Shown one piece after another: positions 6,141-16,482 of a stretch of 24,000 nucleotides of DNA. The stretch is from an uncultured Candidatus Saccharibacteria bacterium (lineage in GTDB: Bacteria; Patescibacteriota; Minisyncoccia; Phycocordibacterales; CAYGLL01): positions 4,159-28,158 of the forward strand of contig CAYGLL010000012.1 of NCBI GenBank assembly GCA_964350935.1, in the 5' to 3' direction. The translations under genes and the position numbers were made by a program. The notes beneath the pieces are model-generated. The model ran no database searches and was not told the DNA's origin. It saw only the letters and a list, made by a program, of their open reading frames with translations. Each line of letters begins with the position of its first letter. The stretch's first letter is position 1.

Positions 6141-6628
6141 TTCGCTCCTCGATTTTTAAGTGCGAACGCGACAACGCCAAACGCCACACTCACGTTCAGT
6201 GATTCTTTGTTGCCGTGCATTGGAATTTCCACAACATCATCACATTTTTGGAGTACCGCTTTTTCCAAACCGGTGACCTCGTTGCCAAGAACAAGTGCAA
6301 CGTGGTGCGGAGGCTTATATGAAAAATATGGAATAGATTTTTTGGACTGTTCAATAGCGGCGATCACATAGCCTTCTGTCTTAAGTTTTTGGGCGACCGC
6401 TTTAAATGTGCGCTCATGCTCCCACGGAATGCTCTGCTCGGCACCAAGCGCGGTCTTCGCAATCTCTTTGACCGGCCGGTTAAAGCGATCGAGGGGTGCT
6501 GGGGTGTAACCCGTAAGATAAATCTTTGAAACGCCAACAGCATCAGCTGTCCGGAAAATCGAACCGACATTGTGTGCGCTGCGAACATCGTGAACGATGA
6601 CGACATACTCGCTGATTTTTTTCTTCAT
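6137..6628 (-). CDS. SpoU/TrmH-family RNA 2'-O-methyltransferase
   Basis: VIVHDVRSAHNVGSIFRTADAVGV, LVLGNEVTGL and IPMHGNKESLNVSVAFGV are the three SpoU (SPOUT) motifs. Confidence 0.75.
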   Translation of the reverse strand: MKKKISEYVVIVHDVRSAHNVGSIFRTADAVGVSKIYLTGYTPAPLDRFNRPVKEIAKTALGAEQSIPWEHERTFKAVAQKLKTEGYVIAAIEQSKKSIPYFSYKPPHHVALVLGNEVTGLEKAVLQKCDDVVEIPMHGNKESLNVSVAFGVVAFALKNRGAN

Positions 6629-7090: not shown

Positions 7091-7149
7091 TTGCGGTTCA
7101 AAAATTTTGTGTTATTATCGTTTGAGCCGGGAAACCGGCTGAATTTTTT

Positions 7150-7222
7150 CCGCCCATAGCTCAGGTGGTAGAGCACCTGCCTTTTAAGCAGAGGGTCGTA
7201 GGTTCGAGTCCTACTGGGCGGA
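7150..7222 (+). tRNA. tRNA-Lys (anticodon UUU)
   Basis: Cloverleaf by hand. Acceptor CCGCCCA/TGGGCGG, D arm GCTC-AGGTGGTA-GAGC, anticodon arm CCTGC-CTTTTAA-GCAGA (27:43 C.A mismatch), variable GGGTC, T arm GTAGG-TTCGAGT-CCTAC, discriminator A. No encoded CCA. Confidence 0.85.
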
Positions 7223-7560: not shown

Positions 7561-7983
7561 CTAAATCGCGCAGCGATTACACGTTCCGAAAAACTCGAGT
7601 GCGTGCGTTTTAATTGAGTTAAATCGTTTAGATTTCTTGAGAGCGTCAGCCTCGATTCTTTGGGTATCACAATTTTCAATGTCTTCAATCGTGCCGCACT
7701 TTTCACAAACGACGTGATGGTGGTGATGAGAATCATTAACAATTTCATAGTGCGTATATGAATACTGAAGATCGATCTTCTTGACCAAGCCAATAGTCAC
7801 AAGGGCATGAAGAGCCCGATAGACATTAACTTTATCCAATACACCCTTCAGCTTTTTCACAATGTCTTCCACGCCCATTGGTTTTCCACTTTTCCCTAAC
7901 ACTTCCAGGAGAGCAACTCGCCCAGGTGTTACTCTGAGGCCATGCACGCGGAGAGAAGTTTGGAATGCACCGTGTGTTTTCAT
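7561..7983 (-). CDS. Fur-family metal-responsive transcriptional regulator (Fur/Zur/PerR type)
   Basis: Winged-helix N-terminus (LRVTPGRVALLEVL...), HHHHHVVCEKCG and C-terminal CNRC metal-site motifs. I prefer the ATG at 7983 (MKTHGAF...) over the track's TTG start at 8007, which lies in the promoter/operator. Confidence 0.8.
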   Translation of the reverse strand: MKTHGAFQTSLRVHGLRVTPGRVALLEVLGKSGKPMGVEDIVKKLKGVLDKVNVYRALHALVTIGLVKKIDLQYSYTHYEIVNDSHHHHHVVCEKCGTIEDIENCDTQRIEADALKKSKRFNSIKTHALEFFGTCNRCAI

Positions 7984-10966: not shown

Positions 10967-10973
10967 TCCTTTA

Positions 10974-11000
10974 GCCCCGCACGTTGTGCGGGGTTTTTTT
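10974..11000 (+). terminator. Intrinsic terminator
   Basis: CCCCGCAC-gtt-GTGCGGGG followed by TTTTTTT. Confidence 0.8.
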
Positions 11001-11043: not shown

Positions 11044-11071
11044 TTGACAAAATAAATGGATATGCTATCAT
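11044..11071 (+). promoter_or_regulatory. Sigma70-type promoter with extended -10 (drives the leader and hammerhead operon)
   Basis: TTGACA (11044-11049), 16 nt spacer, TGcTATCAT (11063-11071). The architecture resembles the promoter at 9663. Confidence 0.55.
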
Positions 11072-11207
11072 TCTCATCCGAACTATATGAGGCAACTTCA
11101 AACACAACTGAAGTCTCAAACCCCACACACTCTAAACGAGCTGTGCCGGATAACTAGTTTTAAAAGAATCCCGATTCAAGAAACTAAAAAGAGAATCGAA
11201 GTGATCC

Positions 11208-11236
11208 AAAAAAACCGCCTTCTGGCGGTTTTTTTG
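11208..11236 (+). terminator. Intrinsic terminator ending a leader/sRNA of about 150 nt
   Basis: AAAAAAACCGCC-ttct-GGCGGTTTTTTT, about 45 nt upstream of hammerhead 1. Confidence 0.7.
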
Positions 11237-11280
11237 ACGCTAAAAACAACCCTCGGGGCAGGACCACCCTAAAAACCCAG

Positions 11281-11333
11281 CCCTGTCCCCTGATGTGTAT
11301 CGGGGCTGATGAGCCGAAAACGGCGAAACAGGG
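11281..11333 (+). ncRNA. Hammerhead ribozyme, type III (HHR1)
   Basis: CCCUGUC^ CCCUG-AUGUGUAU-CGGGG CUGAUGA GCCG-AAAA-CGGC GAA ACAGGG. All core nucleotides are present (C3-A9, G12-A14, A15.1:U16.1, H17=C). Stems I and II are closed and stem III is open. Predicted cleavage after C11287. Confidence 0.85.
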
Positions 11334-11371
11334 GTTCTTCGACAAACACCACCAACTAAAGGAATACCACT

Positions 11372-11848
11372 ATGAAAGCAACCGTCACCGTTCAAAAGAT
11401 CAACTACATCTCGTACGGCCGTGAAAGCAGCCGCTGGGACGACACCGATCTCGTGGCAACGCGCCACACGGGATACGAAGTGATCCTAGAAGTTGAGGGG
11501 ATCTGGAGGTGGCGCACCAAACTCAACTCTTTCTCTGACCTTAGTCGCCGATCGAAGGATCAGTGGCTGTCGGGCACGTCGAAAGTACTCCTCCGGGAAA
11601 ATCTCGATGCTGCATGGCCGAGTGCCAGCAAAGAGTGGAGCGAGCACCGTGCTCTCAGTACCGCTGCCGAGTTCGAGCGATCGGGGTTTCTCACCGAGAT
11701 CAAGGTGTGCGATGAGGAGACCTCATCAATGGGTAGCAAAATACTCATCACCTGGCTCGAGAATGCGCCACCCCAGCATGCGCGAAGAGGAGTTGAGAAT
11801 CGGATACGACCTCAAGCAACCTCTCGAAACTGGGCACGTTGTGAGTAA
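11372..11848 (+). CDS. Hypothetical protein (158 aa), first ORF of the hammerhead operon
   Basis: ATG 11372 has RBS taAAGGAAtaccactATG, 38 nt after HHR1. No family recognised. Overlapping alternative-frame ORFs are probably GC-driven artefacts. Confidence 0.5.
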   Translation: MKATVTVQKINYISYGRESSRWDDTDLVATRHTGYEVILEVEGIWRWRTKLNSFSDLSRRSKDQWLSGTSKVLLRENLDAAWPSASKEWSEHRALSTAAEFERSGFLTEIKVCDEETSSMGSKILITWLENAPPQHARRGVENRIRPQATSRNWARCE

Positions 11849-11893
11849 TCAAAAAAACTCTCATGGGTTTCGGAGTCCCATAGACAAAACTCC

Positions 11894-11944
11894 ACACTAG
11901 CAGGATGTGTGTCCTGCCTGACGAGTCCAAAAGGACGAAAGTGT
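11894..11944 (+). ncRNA. Hammerhead ribozyme, type III (HHR2)
   Basis: ACACUA^ GCAGG-AUGUGUGU-CCUGC CUGACGA GUCC-AAAA-GGAC GAA AGUGU. Position 7 is C (a variable position). The cleavage triplet CUA obeys the NUH rule. Predicted cleavage after A11899. Confidence 0.8.
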
Positions 11945-12075
11945 CAGGGGTTCTTCGAAAAAGTCTCGGATTCGTGGCGGACTCAGGGAAACACAATCTC
12001 TGGGCCCGCTACGAATCGCGAGCTGATAAGGCACCGATCGGTGCACACAGTGAGCAGTTCGGAAGGGACCCGATT

Positions 12076-12228
12076 ATGAACAACCACCATCGTTCCCCCT
12101 TCGGCGCAGTGAAGACGGGCTATGAAGTAAAGAAAACCGGCTATCGGGTAGAGCGCGTCCGGTGCCCAGGGTGTCCGGGCAGGCAAAGCTTCTGGCAACG
12201 CCTGCTCGACTGGTTGTTCAACAGGTAA
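12076..12228 (+). CDS. Small hypothetical protein (50 aa) with a CPGC motif
   Basis: ATG 12076 is preceded by GGAAGGGAcccgatt. Product: MNNHHRSPFGAVKTGYEVKKTGYRVERVRCPGCPGRQSFWQRLLDWLFNR. It is the only RBS-associated ORF between HHR2 and HHR3. The track start 11905 lies inside HHR2. Confidence 0.35.
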   Translation: MNNHHRSPFGAVKTGYEVKKTGYRVERVRCPGCPGRQSFWQRLLDWLFNR

Positions 12229-12267
12229 CAACCGCCCACCAGTTCGAGGATCTGGAAAAAATCCTCG

Positions 12268-12316
12268 CTGTCCCGCGATGTGTGTCGCGGCTGATGAGTC
12301 CAAAAGGACGAAACAG
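12268..12316 (+). ncRNA. Hammerhead ribozyme, type III (HHR3)
   Basis: CUGUC^ CCGCG-AUGUGUGU-CGCGG CUGAUGA GUCC-AAAA-GGAC GAA ACAG. Complete core. Predicted cleavage after C12272. Confidence 0.85.
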
Positions 12317-12463
12317 GGGTTCTTTGAAAAAGTTTGGTTATGGAAGTCAGACCGAACACACCTTAGTTTGACTTCCGTAACCAAACGCAAACGATAAGCA
12401 AATAGCGACTCCGCTTCGCGGACCTCGAGATTTGTACGACTTGCCAAGGTGAGGAAACCAACC

Positions 12464-12760
12464 ATGAAAAAACAAACACCCGCTGTAATCAAGGCACGAA
12501 TTCAGGATTGGCAAAACCCCCGCGGGGTCATTGTTGGCGAAACAAGTATTACGCTGCAGGTCACGAGCGGCTCATGCAATTGTGGGACGTGCATGAATCG
12601 AATCCGAACACTGCGCCAAAACCTCGTCGATAAACCCACGGTCGAACACGCGTGGGTGCGTATGGGTGGCGACCACTGTCTTGTTCTGCCACGCCAACAA
12701 TCTGAAGACCCGCTCGAGCTTCTCCGTAAGACGTTAGGGGTTAGCGTCACAAAAAACTAG
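12464..12760 (+). CDS. Hypothetical protein (98 aa) with a CNCGTC motif
   Basis: ATG 12464 has RBS GGTGAGGAAaccaaccATG. No family recognised. Confidence 0.5.
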   Translation: MKKQTPAVIKARIQDWQNPRGVIVGETSITLQVTSGSCNCGTCMNRIRTLRQNLVDKPTVEHAWVRMGGDHCLVLPRQQSEDPLELLRKTLGVSVTKN

Positions 12761-12797
12761 CCCTCAGAGTTTCGAGAGTTCTCTACAAAAACTCTCA

Positions 12798-12846
12798 CTG
12801 TCGCGCGGTGTGTGCCGCACCTGATGAACCGGAAACGGCGAAACAG
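12798..12846 (+). ncRNA. Hammerhead ribozyme, type III, variant core-adjacent pair (HHR4)
   Basis: CUGUC^ GCGCGG-UGUGUG-CCGCAC CUGAUGA ACCG-GAAA-CGGC GAA ACAG. The core is intact, but 10.1:11.1 is A.C instead of G-C and stem I has one C.A mismatch. Predicted cleavage after C12802. Confidence 0.65.
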
Positions 12847-12882
12847 AAGTTCCTCGACAACAACATAACAAAAGAAATACCT

Positions 12883-13440
12883 ATGCGAGACACGTTGCAA
12901 AAATATGAGTTCTACTTCAGAAGTGCTGAACGATATGCCGACTTTGACCTCTGTTTATGGCCTGGAGAAATCTGGCTAACAACAGAGCCTCAAAAGATGA
13001 CTTGGCTCGAAGCAATTGAAATCGCAGGACAGCACTCAAATATACGTTTGCCGCATTATGCGGACATCATACAATCGGTCAAAAGCTTGGACGAGAAACC
13101 GGAATTGGTCAAAAAATTCGCCCCCCTCGAGAAGGGCGAGTTCTGGACGATTGGCTCGGAAGGATTTAATGCGCAGACTCCCTACGCATGCTGTGTCCTT
13201 GCATCCCACAAGGAATACGACTCTCATCAGAGTAAATTCGAGAAAAAGTGGGTAAGATTCATCAAACAAGGGGCAGCCGAAACTGCGGAGCAAATCCAAA
13301 AGAAAAACGAGGAAAGGGAAAAAAACATATATGAAGAGGAACTTCACCAGCGCACAGTAAGAATCCTGGGGCTCAACACGCCTGAAGGAAAGGCGAACTT
13401 GGAAACCCACATCAAACTTATGAAAATGAATGGGTTCTAA
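12883..13440 (+). CDS. Hypothetical protein (185 aa); weak resemblance to DUF1566-type domains
   Basis: ATG 12883 has the leader aaagaaatacctATG. The segment MTWLEAIEIAGQHSNIRLPHYADIIQSV recalls the tW.eA...c....wRLPt..EL pattern of DUF1566, from memory only. The track start 12808 lies inside HHR4. Confidence 0.5.
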   Translation: MRDTLQKYEFYFRSAERYADFDLCLWPGEIWLTTEPQKMTWLEAIEIAGQHSNIRLPHYADIIQSVKSLDEKPELVKKFAPLEKGEFWTIGSEGFNAQTPYACCVLASHKEYDSHQSKFEKKWVRFIKQGAAETAEQIQKKNEEREKNIYEEELHQRTVRILGLNTPEGKANLETHIKLMKMNGF

Positions 13441-13456: not shown

Positions 13457-13488
13457 CTGGCAAACGAAAGTTTGCCAGTCTTTTATTT
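13457..13488 (+). terminator. Intrinsic terminator of the hammerhead operon
   Basis: CTGGCAAAC-gaaa-GTTTGCCAG followed by TCTTTTATTT. Confidence 0.75.
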
Positions 13489-13516: not shown

Positions 13517-14209
13517 ATGAGCATACAACGCGTACTACTAAAATTATCCGGTGAGCAGTTTGCGGGAAAGAGTCAACTTGGGATTGATTCAATTTTTTTA
13601 TCTGAACTCGCAACCGAGCTCAAAGAGGTGGTTTCAAAAAACGGCGCGCAGGTCGTGATTGTAGTTGGCGGCGGCAACTTTTTACGTGGAGCGACACTCG
13701 CTAAAAAAGAACTCTCCATCGAACGATCGACGGCTGACTACATGGGAATGCTTGCGACGATCATAAACGGAATGGCGTTGGTTGATATTCTTGAGAAGAC
13801 GGGGCAACCCGCACGCTTGCAAACGCGTTTGCGCTGCGACAACGTAGCGGAACAATATATCAGACGAAGAGCTATCAGGCATTTGGAAAAGGGCCGCGTC
13901 GTCATAATCGCCGGCGGAACAGGAAATCCTTTCGTGACGACTGATACCGCGGCGGTGTCTGCGGCGCTTGAACTTGATTGCGAATTGGTCCTCAAGGCAA
14001 CAAAAGTTGACGGCGTCTATACGAAAGACCCTAAGAAGTATCCTGACGCGGAGAAAATCCACAAAATATCTTTCCTTGATGTAATGGACAATGCCGCCAT
14101 TTCTCTCGCCATGGATAATAAATTGCCTGTTAGAGTATTCGACTTATTGAGCAAAGGAAATATTGGAAAAATTATTAACGGAGAAGAAATAGGAACTCTC
14201 ATTTCTTAA
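13517..14209 (+). CDS. pyrH: UMP kinase
   Basis: VLLKLSGE, VVIVVGGGNFLRG, DYMGMLATIINGMAL and AGGTGNPFVTTDTAA are PyrH (amino acid kinase fold) motifs. Confidence 0.9.
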   Translation: MSIQRVLLKLSGEQFAGKSQLGIDSIFLSELATELKEVVSKNGAQVVIVVGGGNFLRGATLAKKELSIERSTADYMGMLATIINGMALVDILEKTGQPARLQTRLRCDNVAEQYIRRRAIRHLEKGRVVIIAGGTGNPFVTTDTAAVSAALELDCELVLKATKVDGVYTKDPKKYPDAEKIHKISFLDVMDNAAISLAMDNKLPVRVFDLLSKGNIGKIINGEEIGTLIS

Positions 14210-14759: not shown

Positions 14760-14839
14760 GGATTCAGACAAAAAACTCATTCGAATGCGTGCGCCAAAGT
14801 ATTGATGTAACGCGTTCGGCGAAGACGAAAGGAAAACAT

Positions 14840-15058
14840 ATGCCTGGATACCTCATATCCGACGAATGCCACGCCCATCGACACAGCGCCTGCAACAGCA
14901 AGACTCACACGCGTCCTTGCAGCTGTAACTGCCATAATTCAAATCCCAACAGTCCTGGTGACGGCGACGTCCAAAATGATGATGAACTGGTCGTTCGTCG
15001 TGAACGCGAGGATGAACACGTCGGCGGAGACGAAAGTGGCGGTGATGGTGGCGACTAA
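14840..15058 (+). CDS. Small Cys/His-rich protein with an acidic tail (72 aa)
   Basis: ATG 14840 has RBS cgAAAGGAAaacatATG, its own promoter and terminator. Product: MPGYLISDECHAHRHSACNSKTHTRPCSCNCHNSNPNSPGDGD...GGDESGGDGGD. Confidence 0.5.
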   Translation: MPGYLISDECHAHRHSACNSKTHTRPCSCNCHNSNPNSPGDGDVQNDDELVVRREREDEHVGGDESGGDGGD

Positions 15059-15165: not shown

Positions 15166-16482
15166 ATGAAGACCTTGGTAATCGACGGCGGTGCACGTGG
15201 GCACGCGATTGTGTCAGGATTGGCGCGCTCTCCTCTGGTCACAAAAATCTGGTGCGCGCCGGGTAACGCTGGAACAGAAACGGAAAAAATCGGTGGCGGG
15301 TGGTTTTACGCAAACAATGAACAGATCCCCGCACACGATGTCGAGGAGTTGGTAAAGTTTGCACTCGAACACAAGCCCGACCTGACAGTCGTTGGATCCG
15401 AAGTGCCGCTCTCACTTGGGTTGGTCGACCGGTTACAGAAACTCGGCTTAAAGGTATTCGGACCAAGCCAGCGTGCGGCGCTCTTTGAATCGTCAAAGAT
15501 TTTTGCTCACAACTTTATGAAGCGCTGGCGTATTCCCTCTCCTGAAGGACGCGGCTTCGATTGCCCGCGTGAGGCATTGGCGTACGCACACGGACTGTTT
15601 GATGACTACGCAGAGTGCGTTGTCAAAGCTGACGGACTGGCCGCAGGTAAAGGAGCGCGGATATGCTTAAGCCGTGTAGAAGCCCGCGAAGCAATTCGTG
15701 AAAGTATGATCGAAAACAAGTTCGGTGCAGCCGGACATCGCGTACTGATTCAACAAAAAGTGCGTGGCGTAGAATGCTCTGAACATATCCTTTTCGACGG
15801 AACAACCTTGTGTCGGTTTCCAAAATCACACGATTACAAACGTCTACTCGACGATGATGAGGGGCCAATGACCGGGGGTATGGGAGCATATTCACTGGGA
15901 ACACCTGAACCGCTGATCTCAATGACTGGACGACACATTTTGGAGCCATGGCGGGAAGGCTGCGAGGCAGAAGAAATTACCTATCGTGGGCTTCTCTATC
16001 CCGGACTTATGGTTAGCGACCAGAATAGCGAAACTGGATATAATGTCCTCGAGTTCAACTCTCGTTTTGGAGACCCTGAAACTGAGGTCTACATACCTCG
16101 CCTTGAAAGCGATCTCGCCGAACTCTTACTTGCCGTTGTTGAGGGAAATCTCAACAAAATCAACATCTGCTGGTCGAGTGATGCATGCGTCGGCGTTGTC
16201 ATGGCAACCCGCGAGTACCCCAATCCAAGCGTGAGAGGCCATCCGATTACTGGCATCTCAGACGCAAACAAGATCAAAGGTGTGAAAGTCTTCCATGCAA
16301 GTACCTTCTTTTCAGACACCCACGATAAACATAAAGGGTATCATGCCGGCGAAGGACGAGTTCTCGTCGTTACCGGCAAAGGACCGACGCTCGAATCGGC
16401 GCGGCAAACCGCTTACGCTGGAGTTGAATGTATCAAGTTCGAAGGCATGCAGTACCGCAAAAAAATTGCTCTTCTCCAATAG
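15166..16482 (+). CDS. purD: Phosphoribosylamine--glycine ligase
   Basis: MKTLVIDGGARGHAIVSGLARSPLV.KIWCAPGNAG N-terminus, ATP-grasp core (VVKADGLAAGKG) and the LEFNSRFGDPE motif. Confidence 0.85.
   Translation: MKTLVIDGGARGHAIVSGLARSPLVTKIWCAPGNAGTETEKIGGGWFYANNEQIPAHDVEELVKFALEHKPDLTVVGSEVPLSLGLVDRLQKLGLKVFGPSQRAALFESSKIFAHNFMKRWRIPSPEGRGFDCPREALAYAHGLFDDYAECVVKADGLAAGKGARICLSRVEAREAIRESMIENKFGAAGHRVLIQQKVRGVECSEHILFDGTTLCRFPKSHDYKRLLDDDEGPMTGGMGAYSLGTPEPLISMTGRHILEPWREGCEAEEITYRGLLYPGLMVSDQNSETGYNVLEFNSRFGDPETEVYIPRLESDLAELLLAVVEGNLNKINICWSSDACVGVVMATREYPNPSVRGHPITGISDANKIKGVKVFHASTFFSDTHDKHKGYHAGEGRVLVVTGKGPTLESARQTAYAGVECIKFEGMQYRKKIALLQ

Follow-up and report, generated by a model that had tools for sequence, protein, structure and literature searches.

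The DNA described here is a 24-kb stretch (the window, to whose positions all coordinates refer) that carries, on its forward strand, an array of four hammerhead ribozyme (HHR) motifs, one before each of four small open reading frames (ORFs). An original prediction, made from the letters of the DNA alone, had proposed four such motifs at this locus. All four sequences are indeed found where it placed them, and the ORF starts that it gave (11372, 12076, 12464 and 12883) are correct. The array is laid out as follows.

11281 to 11333, + strand: HHR1, type III hammerhead; predicted cleavage 11287/11288; without an upstream pseudoknot; minimum-energy fold a three-way junction.
11372 to 11848, + strand: ORF1, 158 amino acids (aa).
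11894 to 11944, + strand: HHR2, type III hammerhead; predicted cleavage 11899/11900; CUA triplet, C at N7.
12076 to 12228, + strand: ORF2, 50 aa, an orphan of uncertain coding status.
12268 to 12316, + strand: HHR3, type III hammerhead; predicted cleavage 12272/12273; the highest-scoring copy.
12464 to 12760, + strand: ORF3, 98 aa, member of a conserved small family.
12798 to 12846, + strand: HHR4, type III hammerhead; predicted cleavage 12802/12803; C.A in stem I and A.C at 10.1/11.1.
12883 to 13440, + strand: ORF4, 185 aa, a conserved lineage gene.

Across the whole window, the core pattern CTGANGA-N12-GAAA matches four times, always on the + strand (11306, 11918, 12291 and 12821), against 0.09 matches expected from shuffled sequences. 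Every copy holds the conserved core, C3-U4-G5-A6-N7-G8-A9 with G12-A13-A14, in the right order and spacing. In all of them stems I and II are closed by loops and stem III is open, which is type III topology. From HHR1 to HHR4 the cleavage triplets are GUC, CUA, GUC and GUC, in keeping with the N-U-H rule and with H17 never being G. Topology and triplets are thus as first described, and the new 5' ends that had been predicted (11288, 11900, 12273 and 12803) agree with U16.1-H17 ends at 11287, 11899, 12272 and 12802. HHR1 to HHR3 have perfect cores and helices, and the four window copies differ from each other by compensatory changes. Folded alone, HHR1 and HHR3 reach their energy minimum as a three-way junction; the minimum-energy fold of HHR2 is not a hammerhead.

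The covariance search that the original prediction had called for gave significant local E-values for three of the copies. Within the 2.6 kb searched, the Rfam Hammerhead_3 model found HHR3 at 42.0 bits, HHR2 at 34.0 bits and HHR4 at 28.6 bits (E = 4e-7, 7e-5 and 2e-3, respectively), while HHR1 was not reported as Hammerhead_3. A subfamily model built from 68 members, the four window copies among them, scores these copies at 69-81 bits (HHR3 80.6) and finds no further copies in the window.

Relatives of these motifs occur in viral and metagenomic data. A degenerate pattern for the subtype, with UGUGU in loop 1 and a 4-bp stem II capped by a RAAA loop, matched 19 viral contigs. When the pattern also required a downstream sequence box, described below, it matched 56 metagenome contigs, against ~0.1 expected by chance. 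A model-based census comprises 107 hammerheads from 49 sources (403 kb), which lie always on one strand per contig and form arrays of 3-10. Several of the related contigs derive from 0.1-um groundwater filtrates.

The alignment of 68 non-redundant copies provides evidence that structure is maintained. Its selection filter demanded stems I and III, and did not demand stem II. Across the three helices 99.7% of cells are paired; shuffles reach 69%, and controls with slid partners 34-44%. Both sides change in 12 of the 14 helix pairs, and stem II, despite standing outside the filter, covaries as well as the other two stems. The U16.1-A15.1 pair is invariant (68/68), stem III reads CUGUC/ACAG in most units, and the loops are conserved too, with UG in loop 1 in at least 90% of sequences and an invariant AAA in loop 2. 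This loop conservation is consistent with a tertiary contact between loops 1 and 2.

Conservation extends to position. Synteny between hammerheads (HH) and homologues of these ORFs, which the original prediction proposed to look for, is kept in related contigs. One of them, L084, has the order ORF1-like, HH, ORF3-like, HH, AAA_28/CYTH, HH, ORF4-like, dcd, and another, L083, reads HH, 89-aa ORF, HH, ORF3-like, HH, ORF4-like. A third, L082, carries ten same-strand hammerheads in 10 kb, including the blocks HH, ORF3-like, HH and HH, ORF4-like. Hammerheads thus precede homologues of ORF3, ORF4 and AAA_28 in orthologous loci. ORF4 has nine homologues at 56-70% identity, with a hammerhead upstream in three of the four orthologous loci. 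Helix covariation, conserved loops and conservation before orthologous genes in other genomes together show that these predicted ribozymes are under selection as ribozymes.

The L082 array also contains a second form of the motif. Six of its hammerheads (6233-6321, 7096-7186, 7884-7973, 13530-13618, 14770-14859 and 16211-16300) have a much enlarged stem II, with an extra hairpin such as CACACGAGUGUG in the place of the tetraloop, and enlarged and compact forms alternate along the array. Separately, contigs L001, L003, L004 and L005 end near window positions 11209-11270, so that several independent assemblies of the host break within or just before HHR1. This would be expected if repeated modules confuse assemblers, and such arrays may therefore be under-represented in metagenome-assembled genomes (MAGs).

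The hammerheads do not stand alone in the intergenic regions IG1 to IG4; the original prediction had missed the pseudoknots, boxes and long leader hairpins that accompany them. Directly 5' of stem III lies a stable hairpin, which in IG2, IG3 and IG4 forms part of a predicted H-type pseudoknot with the order S1, U-rich loop, purine-rich S2, S1', A-rich loop, S2'.

11863 to 11893, + strand: pseudoknot PK2; S1 AUGGG, UUUC, S2 GGAGU, S1' CCCAU, AGACAAA, S2' ACUCC; abuts stem III of HHR2.
12239 to 12266, + strand: pseudoknot PK3; CCAG, UUC, GAGGAU, CUGG, AAAAA, AUCCUC.
12766 to 12796, + strand: pseudoknot PK4; AGAG, UUUC, GAGAGUU, CUCU, ACAAA, AACUCUC.

The spacing from stop codon to pseudoknot to hammerhead is tight (6-15 nt). 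HHR1, the sole copy with no coding RNA upstream, is also the copy that lacks a pseudoknot. A pseudoknot of 9 bp or more is present in 44 out of 75 non-redundant units, where dinucleotide shuffles give 7.8 +/- 2.6. If the S2 hairpin is kept constant, 25 of 57 units have an S1 of 4 bp or longer, against 9.7 +/- 2.7 with shuffled flanks and 10.1 +/- 2.5 with swapped flanks. Phage copies of the same subtype show a related order of a hairpin, then the hammerhead, a leader of 25-35 nt and the ATG.

On the other side of each ribozyme, 0-6 nt after stem III and mostly behind an A-rich linker, stands the box GUUCUUYGA. In IG2 and IG3 it is followed by a long hairpin.

11334 to 11342, + strand: box 1, GTTCTTCGA.
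11950 to 11958, + strand: box 2, GTTCTTCGA; predicted pairing with the Shine-Dalgarno (SD) region of ORF2.
11966 to 12020, + strand: long leader hairpin of IG2, ~20 bp; z = -5.9; the IG2 leader has a homologue in L054.
12319 to 12327, + strand: box 3, GTTCTTTGA.
12332 to 12386, + strand: long leader hairpin of IG3, 21 bp; z = -6.5.
12849 to 12857, + strand: box 4, GTTCCTCGA, a variant.

Related loci (L026-L084, 403 kb) contain 82 copies of GTTCTTYGA against ~6 expected. A hammerhead stands before 57 of these; another 21 have the same orientation but no hammerhead, and four are on the opposite strand, with 78 in total on the gene strand. Some of the hammerhead-free boxes follow promoter-like -10 elements at about the position of the transcription start (L064, L050). 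From its distribution, the box is best described as the standard start of the 5' untranslated region (UTR) in these genomes. Two classes of leader follow it. The first is short and unstructured (IG1 and IG4, ~25-30 nt from box to ATG), and the second is long and begins with the near-perfect 20-bp hairpin of IG2 and IG3; many metagenome units belong to the long class.

Other roles considered for the box were rejected. As the -35 element of a promoter for each gene it lacks an enriched -10 at a suitable distance (0, 0 and 2 of 61 units), and the ribosome-binding sites (RBSs) of some units lie 12-20 nt behind it. As a translation switch that depends on cleavage it finds no support in predicted SD accessibility, which is alike in precursor (0.42) and 3' product (0.40; p = 0.21). 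There is a weak tendency for the box to pair with the SD sequence (0.28, and 0.19 when boxes are scrambled; p = 0.02). It is most marked in IG2. No consistent long-range pairing partner of the box emerged.

A different structure can occupy the place of the hammerhead. On the - strand of contig L077, two structured elements that are not hammerheads (1562-1448 and 338-219) lie directly before a GTTCTTTGA box. They share the sequence GGCGGG-N4-GCAGACGCGAAACUCCCGCC, then CCCUUAUCCGAAWU, a hairpin and AWUUCAGAAGAGGG, and their second hairpin differs between copies by compensatory changes. They have no Rfam match at E <= 0.5, and a search of box-only sites for other Rfam ribozyme classes found none. 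The L077 element may represent an RNA not described before, perhaps a further class of ribozyme within this niche.

Genes flanking the array encode a Mur ligase, a cell-wall amidase, a tRNA, an AAA_28/CYTH protein, pyrH, dcd, purD, pyrD, a Pol III delta-like protein and polA, and the window holds no integrase, transposase or phage gene. Judged by this gene content, the setting is chromosomal and not a prophage. The only genome relative of the AAA_28/CYTH gene (51% identity) lies in an uncultured Candidatus Saccharibacteria MAG, L025. The host is probably a Saccharibacteria-like bacterium, a tentative assignment. L025, the nearest genome, has no hammerhead, and conserved synteny with it was rejected on that ground.

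Modules that border genes of varying identity might be the borders of mobile or shuffled cassettes, whether phage-derived, selfish or acting as 60-80 nt of near-identical DNA for recombination, with RNA processing as a secondary matter. We regard this as unlikely. The cargo is admittedly small and very diverse (91 ORFs in the census, with a median of 124 aa and 57 of 69 clusters being singletons), even if larger genes for helicases, a MoxR ATPase and a methyltransferase also follow hammerheads. ORF2 is an orphan and ORF1 is close to being one, orthologous loci arrange ORF3, AAA_28 and ORF4 in different orders, the GC content of the island is 0.53-0.55 against ~0.47 in its flanks, and assemblies break at HHR1. 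Published hammerhead clusters lie in prophages (PMC3088659). Yet the window, with its Mur ligase, pyrH, dcd, purD, pyrD and polA, lacks integrase, transposase and phage genes, neither ORF3, ORF4 nor the array has a match in 50,697 phage genomes, and PADLOC found nothing. Moreover, all copies are co-oriented with the genes, and covariation in the helices reflects selection on RNA structure and not on DNA identity.

Transcription of the array can be approached through the elements that surround it.

11044 to 11071, + strand: TG-extended sigma-70-type promoter, TTGACA-16-TATCAT; no better one in the region (11 of 12 matches).
11076 to 11237, + strand: structured leader or small RNA (sRNA), ~160 nt, ending in an intrinsic terminator; fold z = -6.5; the array lies downstream.
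11207 to 11237, + strand: intrinsic terminator of the leader, AAAAAAACCGCC-UUCU-GGCGGUUUUUUU.
13457 to 13488, + strand: intrinsic terminator closing the array.

The promoter is strong, and a further terminator lies at 10973-10995. The ~160-nt leader belongs to no Rfam family, with partial matches to sRNA terminators only, and would control the array as an attenuator or else be an sRNA. In the fold of the leader region, GGGGCAGG (11255-11262) pairs with CCUGUCCC (11282-11289). This modelled pairing would sequester the cleavage site of HHR1 together with the 5' strands of its stems III and I, and represents a possible regulatory alternative fold that switches the ribozyme on or off.

We consider it likely that the array turns a polycistronic RNA into single-gene RNAs with protected ends, each gene being equipped with a three-part RNA processing module. 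This is the best-supported reading, because the comparative evidence shows selection as ribozymes. Transcription would begin at the 11044 promoter and read through the 11207-11237 terminator. Each type III hammerhead would fold as it is transcribed and cut itself after C17 or A17, splitting the polycistron into single-gene RNAs. The topology would leave nearly the whole ribozyme on the downstream fragment, and since the new 5'-OH nucleotide belongs to the opening base pair of stem I, the 5' end of the downstream mRNA would be both paired and unphosphorylated. On the upstream fragment the stable hairpin (in IG2-IG4 the H-type pseudoknot with its A-rich loop) would lie 5-7 nt before the 2',3'-cyclic phosphate, and this hairpin should block 3' exonucleases. 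The box would give all processed mRNAs an identical 5'-UTR start. We infer cleavage in vivo, a protective role for both ends and this role for the box. As with the engineered insulator RiboJ, the outcome would be that the expression and stability of each gene are uncoupled from those of its neighbours. HHR4 probably cuts more slowly, and some of the ORF3-ORF4 RNA would then stay dicistronic.

The same cuts could in principle have other products. Pairs of hammerheads might excise gene units whose ends are ligated, by RtcB or by the ribozyme, into exonuclease-resistant circular mRNAs, as in viroids and retrozymes; we judge this very unlikely. Circular RNAs do use hammerheads of type III, the 5'-OH and 2',3'-cyclic-phosphate end chemistry suits RtcB, and the stem III sequence is common to most units. 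Perreault et al. raised the possibility themselves, but their search for circles or spliced products came up empty (PMC3088659). The window shows no ligase gene, and a 3' pseudoknot combined with a structured 5' end makes more sense for linear RNAs. Circularisation by way of a chimeric stem III was rejected as incompatible for two of the three units: stem III of HHR2 differs (ACACUA/AGUGU), so chimeric stems are impossible for units 1 and 2.

Alternatively, cleavage could be a down-regulating or decay step as in glmS, in which the 5'-OH lets in an RNase J-type 5' exonuclease and limits the downstream genes. Many lineages outside the proteobacteria depend on RNase J or Y. With glmS, RNase J1 degrades the cleavage product that carries the 5'-OH (PMC3997798). 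We nevertheless think it improbable, given that the new 5' nucleotide would here be paired in a stem I of 6-7 bp without a single-stranded overhang, an arrangement known to block 5'-end-dependent decay. According to references in the same paper, 5'-terminal stem-loops stabilise mRNA or hinder end-dependent decay (PMC3997798). Nor is it easy to see why each gene, the conserved ones included, should be preceded by a signal for constitutive decay, and RiboJ, which has the same design, raises expression (PMC6206723).

Several observations weigh against processing into protected single-gene RNAs. Destabilisation of the glmS 5'-OH product by RNase J1 in B. subtilis means that a ribozyme-made 5'-OH can destabilise an mRNA (PMC3997798). 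Where one promoter with its leader and one terminator had been proposed for the array, the promoter and the closing terminator stand, but the strong intrinsic terminator at 11207-11237 lies between promoter and HHR1, 45 nt before the latter. The array would therefore be expressed by read-through or antitermination, or else the leader is a separate sRNA. A true pseudoknot is present in only ~40-45% of units, the rest having a plain hairpin or nothing detectable; we take it to be real, though found in under half of units, because S1 is enriched with S2 held fixed. None of the four window copies reaches the Rfam RF00008 gathering score of 48.5 bits. This threshold is too strict for the subfamily, as the E-values are still significant and only 4 of ~35 copies in 14 related loci pass it.

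The remaining points concern HHR4. It has two helix mismatches that the original prediction did not note, C.A at 1.2/2.2 and A.C at 10.1/11.1, and its minimum-energy fold, when folded alone, is not a hammerhead. The G10.1-C11.1 pair is present in HHR1-3 and kept in 67 of the 68 aligned sequences. HHR4 is the one doubtful copy because it is the only sequence to break this pair and, in addition, holds the only broken stem I pair (C.A) of the alignment. HHR1 to HHR3 are canonical, and HHR4 may be weakened or attenuated. The hammerhead before the ORF4 homologue in L083 likewise lacks G10.1-C11.1 (A.A), so in front of this gene a ribozyme of reduced strength may be acceptable or even favoured.

Sub-threshold Rfam scores and the two mismatches of HHR4 could also be read as signs that the motifs are decaying relics without present function. 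That explanation is extremely unlikely. Low Rfam scores are general in the subfamily, three of the window copies combine perfect cores and helices with compensatory differences, and orthologous positions keep their hammerheads at 57-65% protein identity of the flanking gene.

Processing of a polycistron by ribozymes, as the original prediction framed it, is the reading that the covariation and the orthologous loci best support, but the idea is not new. Perreault et al. (2011) described clustered hammerheads that flank single genes in prophage regions of Clostridium scindens, Azorhizobium caulinodans and Agrobacterium tumefaciens; three arrays cleaved in vitro and in E. coli, and the proposed role was to convert long transcripts into gene-length mRNAs (PMC3088659). 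As in those clusters, several same-strand hammerheads (here four in 1.6 kb) bracket single genes or short blocks of varying identity. Those clusters, however, sit in prophages, number up to three copies and combine different hammerhead types; the window array is chromosomal among housekeeping genes, is entirely type III and has relatives with up to 10 copies. It also adds the upstream pseudoknot or hairpin and the downstream box, on which the passages considered of that paper are silent.

The type III members of RF00008, in sobemovirus virusoids and the sTRSV satellite RNA, share the core, the topology, the UGUGU of loop 1 and the GAAA or AAAA of loop 2. These viral members act in rolling-circle replication of circular RNAs, whereas the window copies are DNA-encoded, intergenic and below the gathering threshold. 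Two matches in the viral collection, 366 and 377 nt long, carry the identical hammerhead subtype, and these lengths agree with those of the VTMoV and SNMoV virusoids.

RiboJ is a further point of comparison. It consists of the sTRSV hammerhead and a 23-nt hairpin before the RBS, and raises mRNA ~2-fold and protein 2-10-fold (PMC6206723). Like the window units it combines type III hammerhead, hairpin and RBS, and it removes upstream RNA to give every transcript an identical structured 5' end. IG2 and IG3 share this layout, with the box placed between the ribozyme and the 20-bp hairpin. RiboJ, however, is engineered, and lacks both a 3'-end element for the upstream fragment and a conserved box, while the natural module is repeated between genes. 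The glmS element is similar in that a self-cleaving ribozyme stands in a bacterial 5' UTR and the fate of the mRNA depends on the 5'-OH product (PMC3997798). It responds to a ligand, however, is found as a single copy and leads to decay by RNase J1, in contrast to the window units, which have no recognisable ligand pocket and a predicted base-paired 5' end. In mitochondrial tRNA punctuation, a polycistron is cut at structured RNAs by the protein enzymes RNase P and RNase Z. There, too, intergenic RNA structures mark the cuts, but the mark in the window would cut itself.

The ribozyme class and the general arrangement are therefore already known, and what appears to be new are the conserved flanking elements, the chromosomal and lineage-wide use and the sizes of the arrays. 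The literature searched, outside which many subscription papers lie, yielded no paper linking hammerheads with the candidate phyla radiation (CPR), Patescibacteria or Saccharibacteria, and no description of the pseudoknot-hammerhead-box module. A 2019 review still calls the biological roles of genome-encoded bacterial hammerheads largely elusive (PMC6765202). Against that background the locus and its relatives provide an unusually clear comparative handle on function, with hammerheads before conserved chromosomal genes and not just in phages. The other two parts of the module sit where the new 3' and 5' RNA ends would lie, which suggests that selection acts on what becomes of the cleavage products. 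The module would be a natural RiboJ-like insulator with an extra 3'-end element, and could supply parts for operon design. On the practical side, the Rfam threshold misses ~90% of these ribozymes.

More tentatively, and with some doubt, we speculate that an uncultured and probably Patescibacteria-like group uses ribozyme punctuation generally, with a pseudoknot cap, a hammerhead and a universal box in arrays of up to 10 replacing processing by protein RNases. The same niche would hold at least one unclassified structured RNA, the L077 element, which could be a further ribozyme class. If true, the module separates many chromosomal genes and sets the stability and translation of each message.

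The genes of the array are themselves obscure. ORF1 to ORF4 returned nothing from Pfam, PHROGs, NCBIfam or PADLOC, and the AAA_28/CYTH protein likewise has no PADLOC match to known defence families. ORF1 has no homologue among 5.8 billion clusters; the one exception is L084, where a weak match lies collinearly in the syntenic slot. For ORF2, homology to the 89-aa ORF in the same slot of L083 was rejected (E = 0.11). The ORF3 family, with ~35 representatives and an invariant W..R...C-x(1-2)-C-x2-C..R core, is the most recurrent hammerhead-flanked gene. Its predicted structure is confident (AlphaFold pLDDT 94) and has no significant neighbour in the PDB (best E = 0.07, TM 0.3-0.4); assignment to the HMA-type metal-binding domains is not supported, on this ground and because profiles match only at E = 0.1. 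The ORF4 model is too poor for use (pLDDT 48), and the ORF4 profile has no PDB match. The ORF3 domain (~85 aa, three conserved Cys) is further found repeated in tandem, 2-7 times, in proteins that reach 1609 aa (P0017, P0030, P0039 and P0048).

The original prediction drew attention to the neighbouring CYTH-domain gene, a link that proves weak. The gene does lie inside a punctuated cluster in L084, where it has a hammerhead both before and after it (1603-2853), but no hammerhead is near it in the Saccharibacteria relative. A P-loop kinase-like domain fused to a triphosphate-tunnel domain, beside ribozymes that would make 5'-OH ends, is a suggestive combination.

Gene callers read through hammerheads and so create false N-terminal extensions. 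They begin ORFs inside the ribozymes, as at window 12808-13440 (a 210-aa call for ORF4 that runs through HHR4), at window 11293 and 11905, and in protein P0047. The false N-termini follow MC..[APT]DE....KQ, a signature that could find hammerhead-preceded genes in protein databases. Elsewhere in the window, the ORF at 9043-9513 matches Pfam PF20704, 'NucS shadow ORF' (E = 2e-7), with no NucS gene evident, and PF20704 is also annotated on the sister contig L002.

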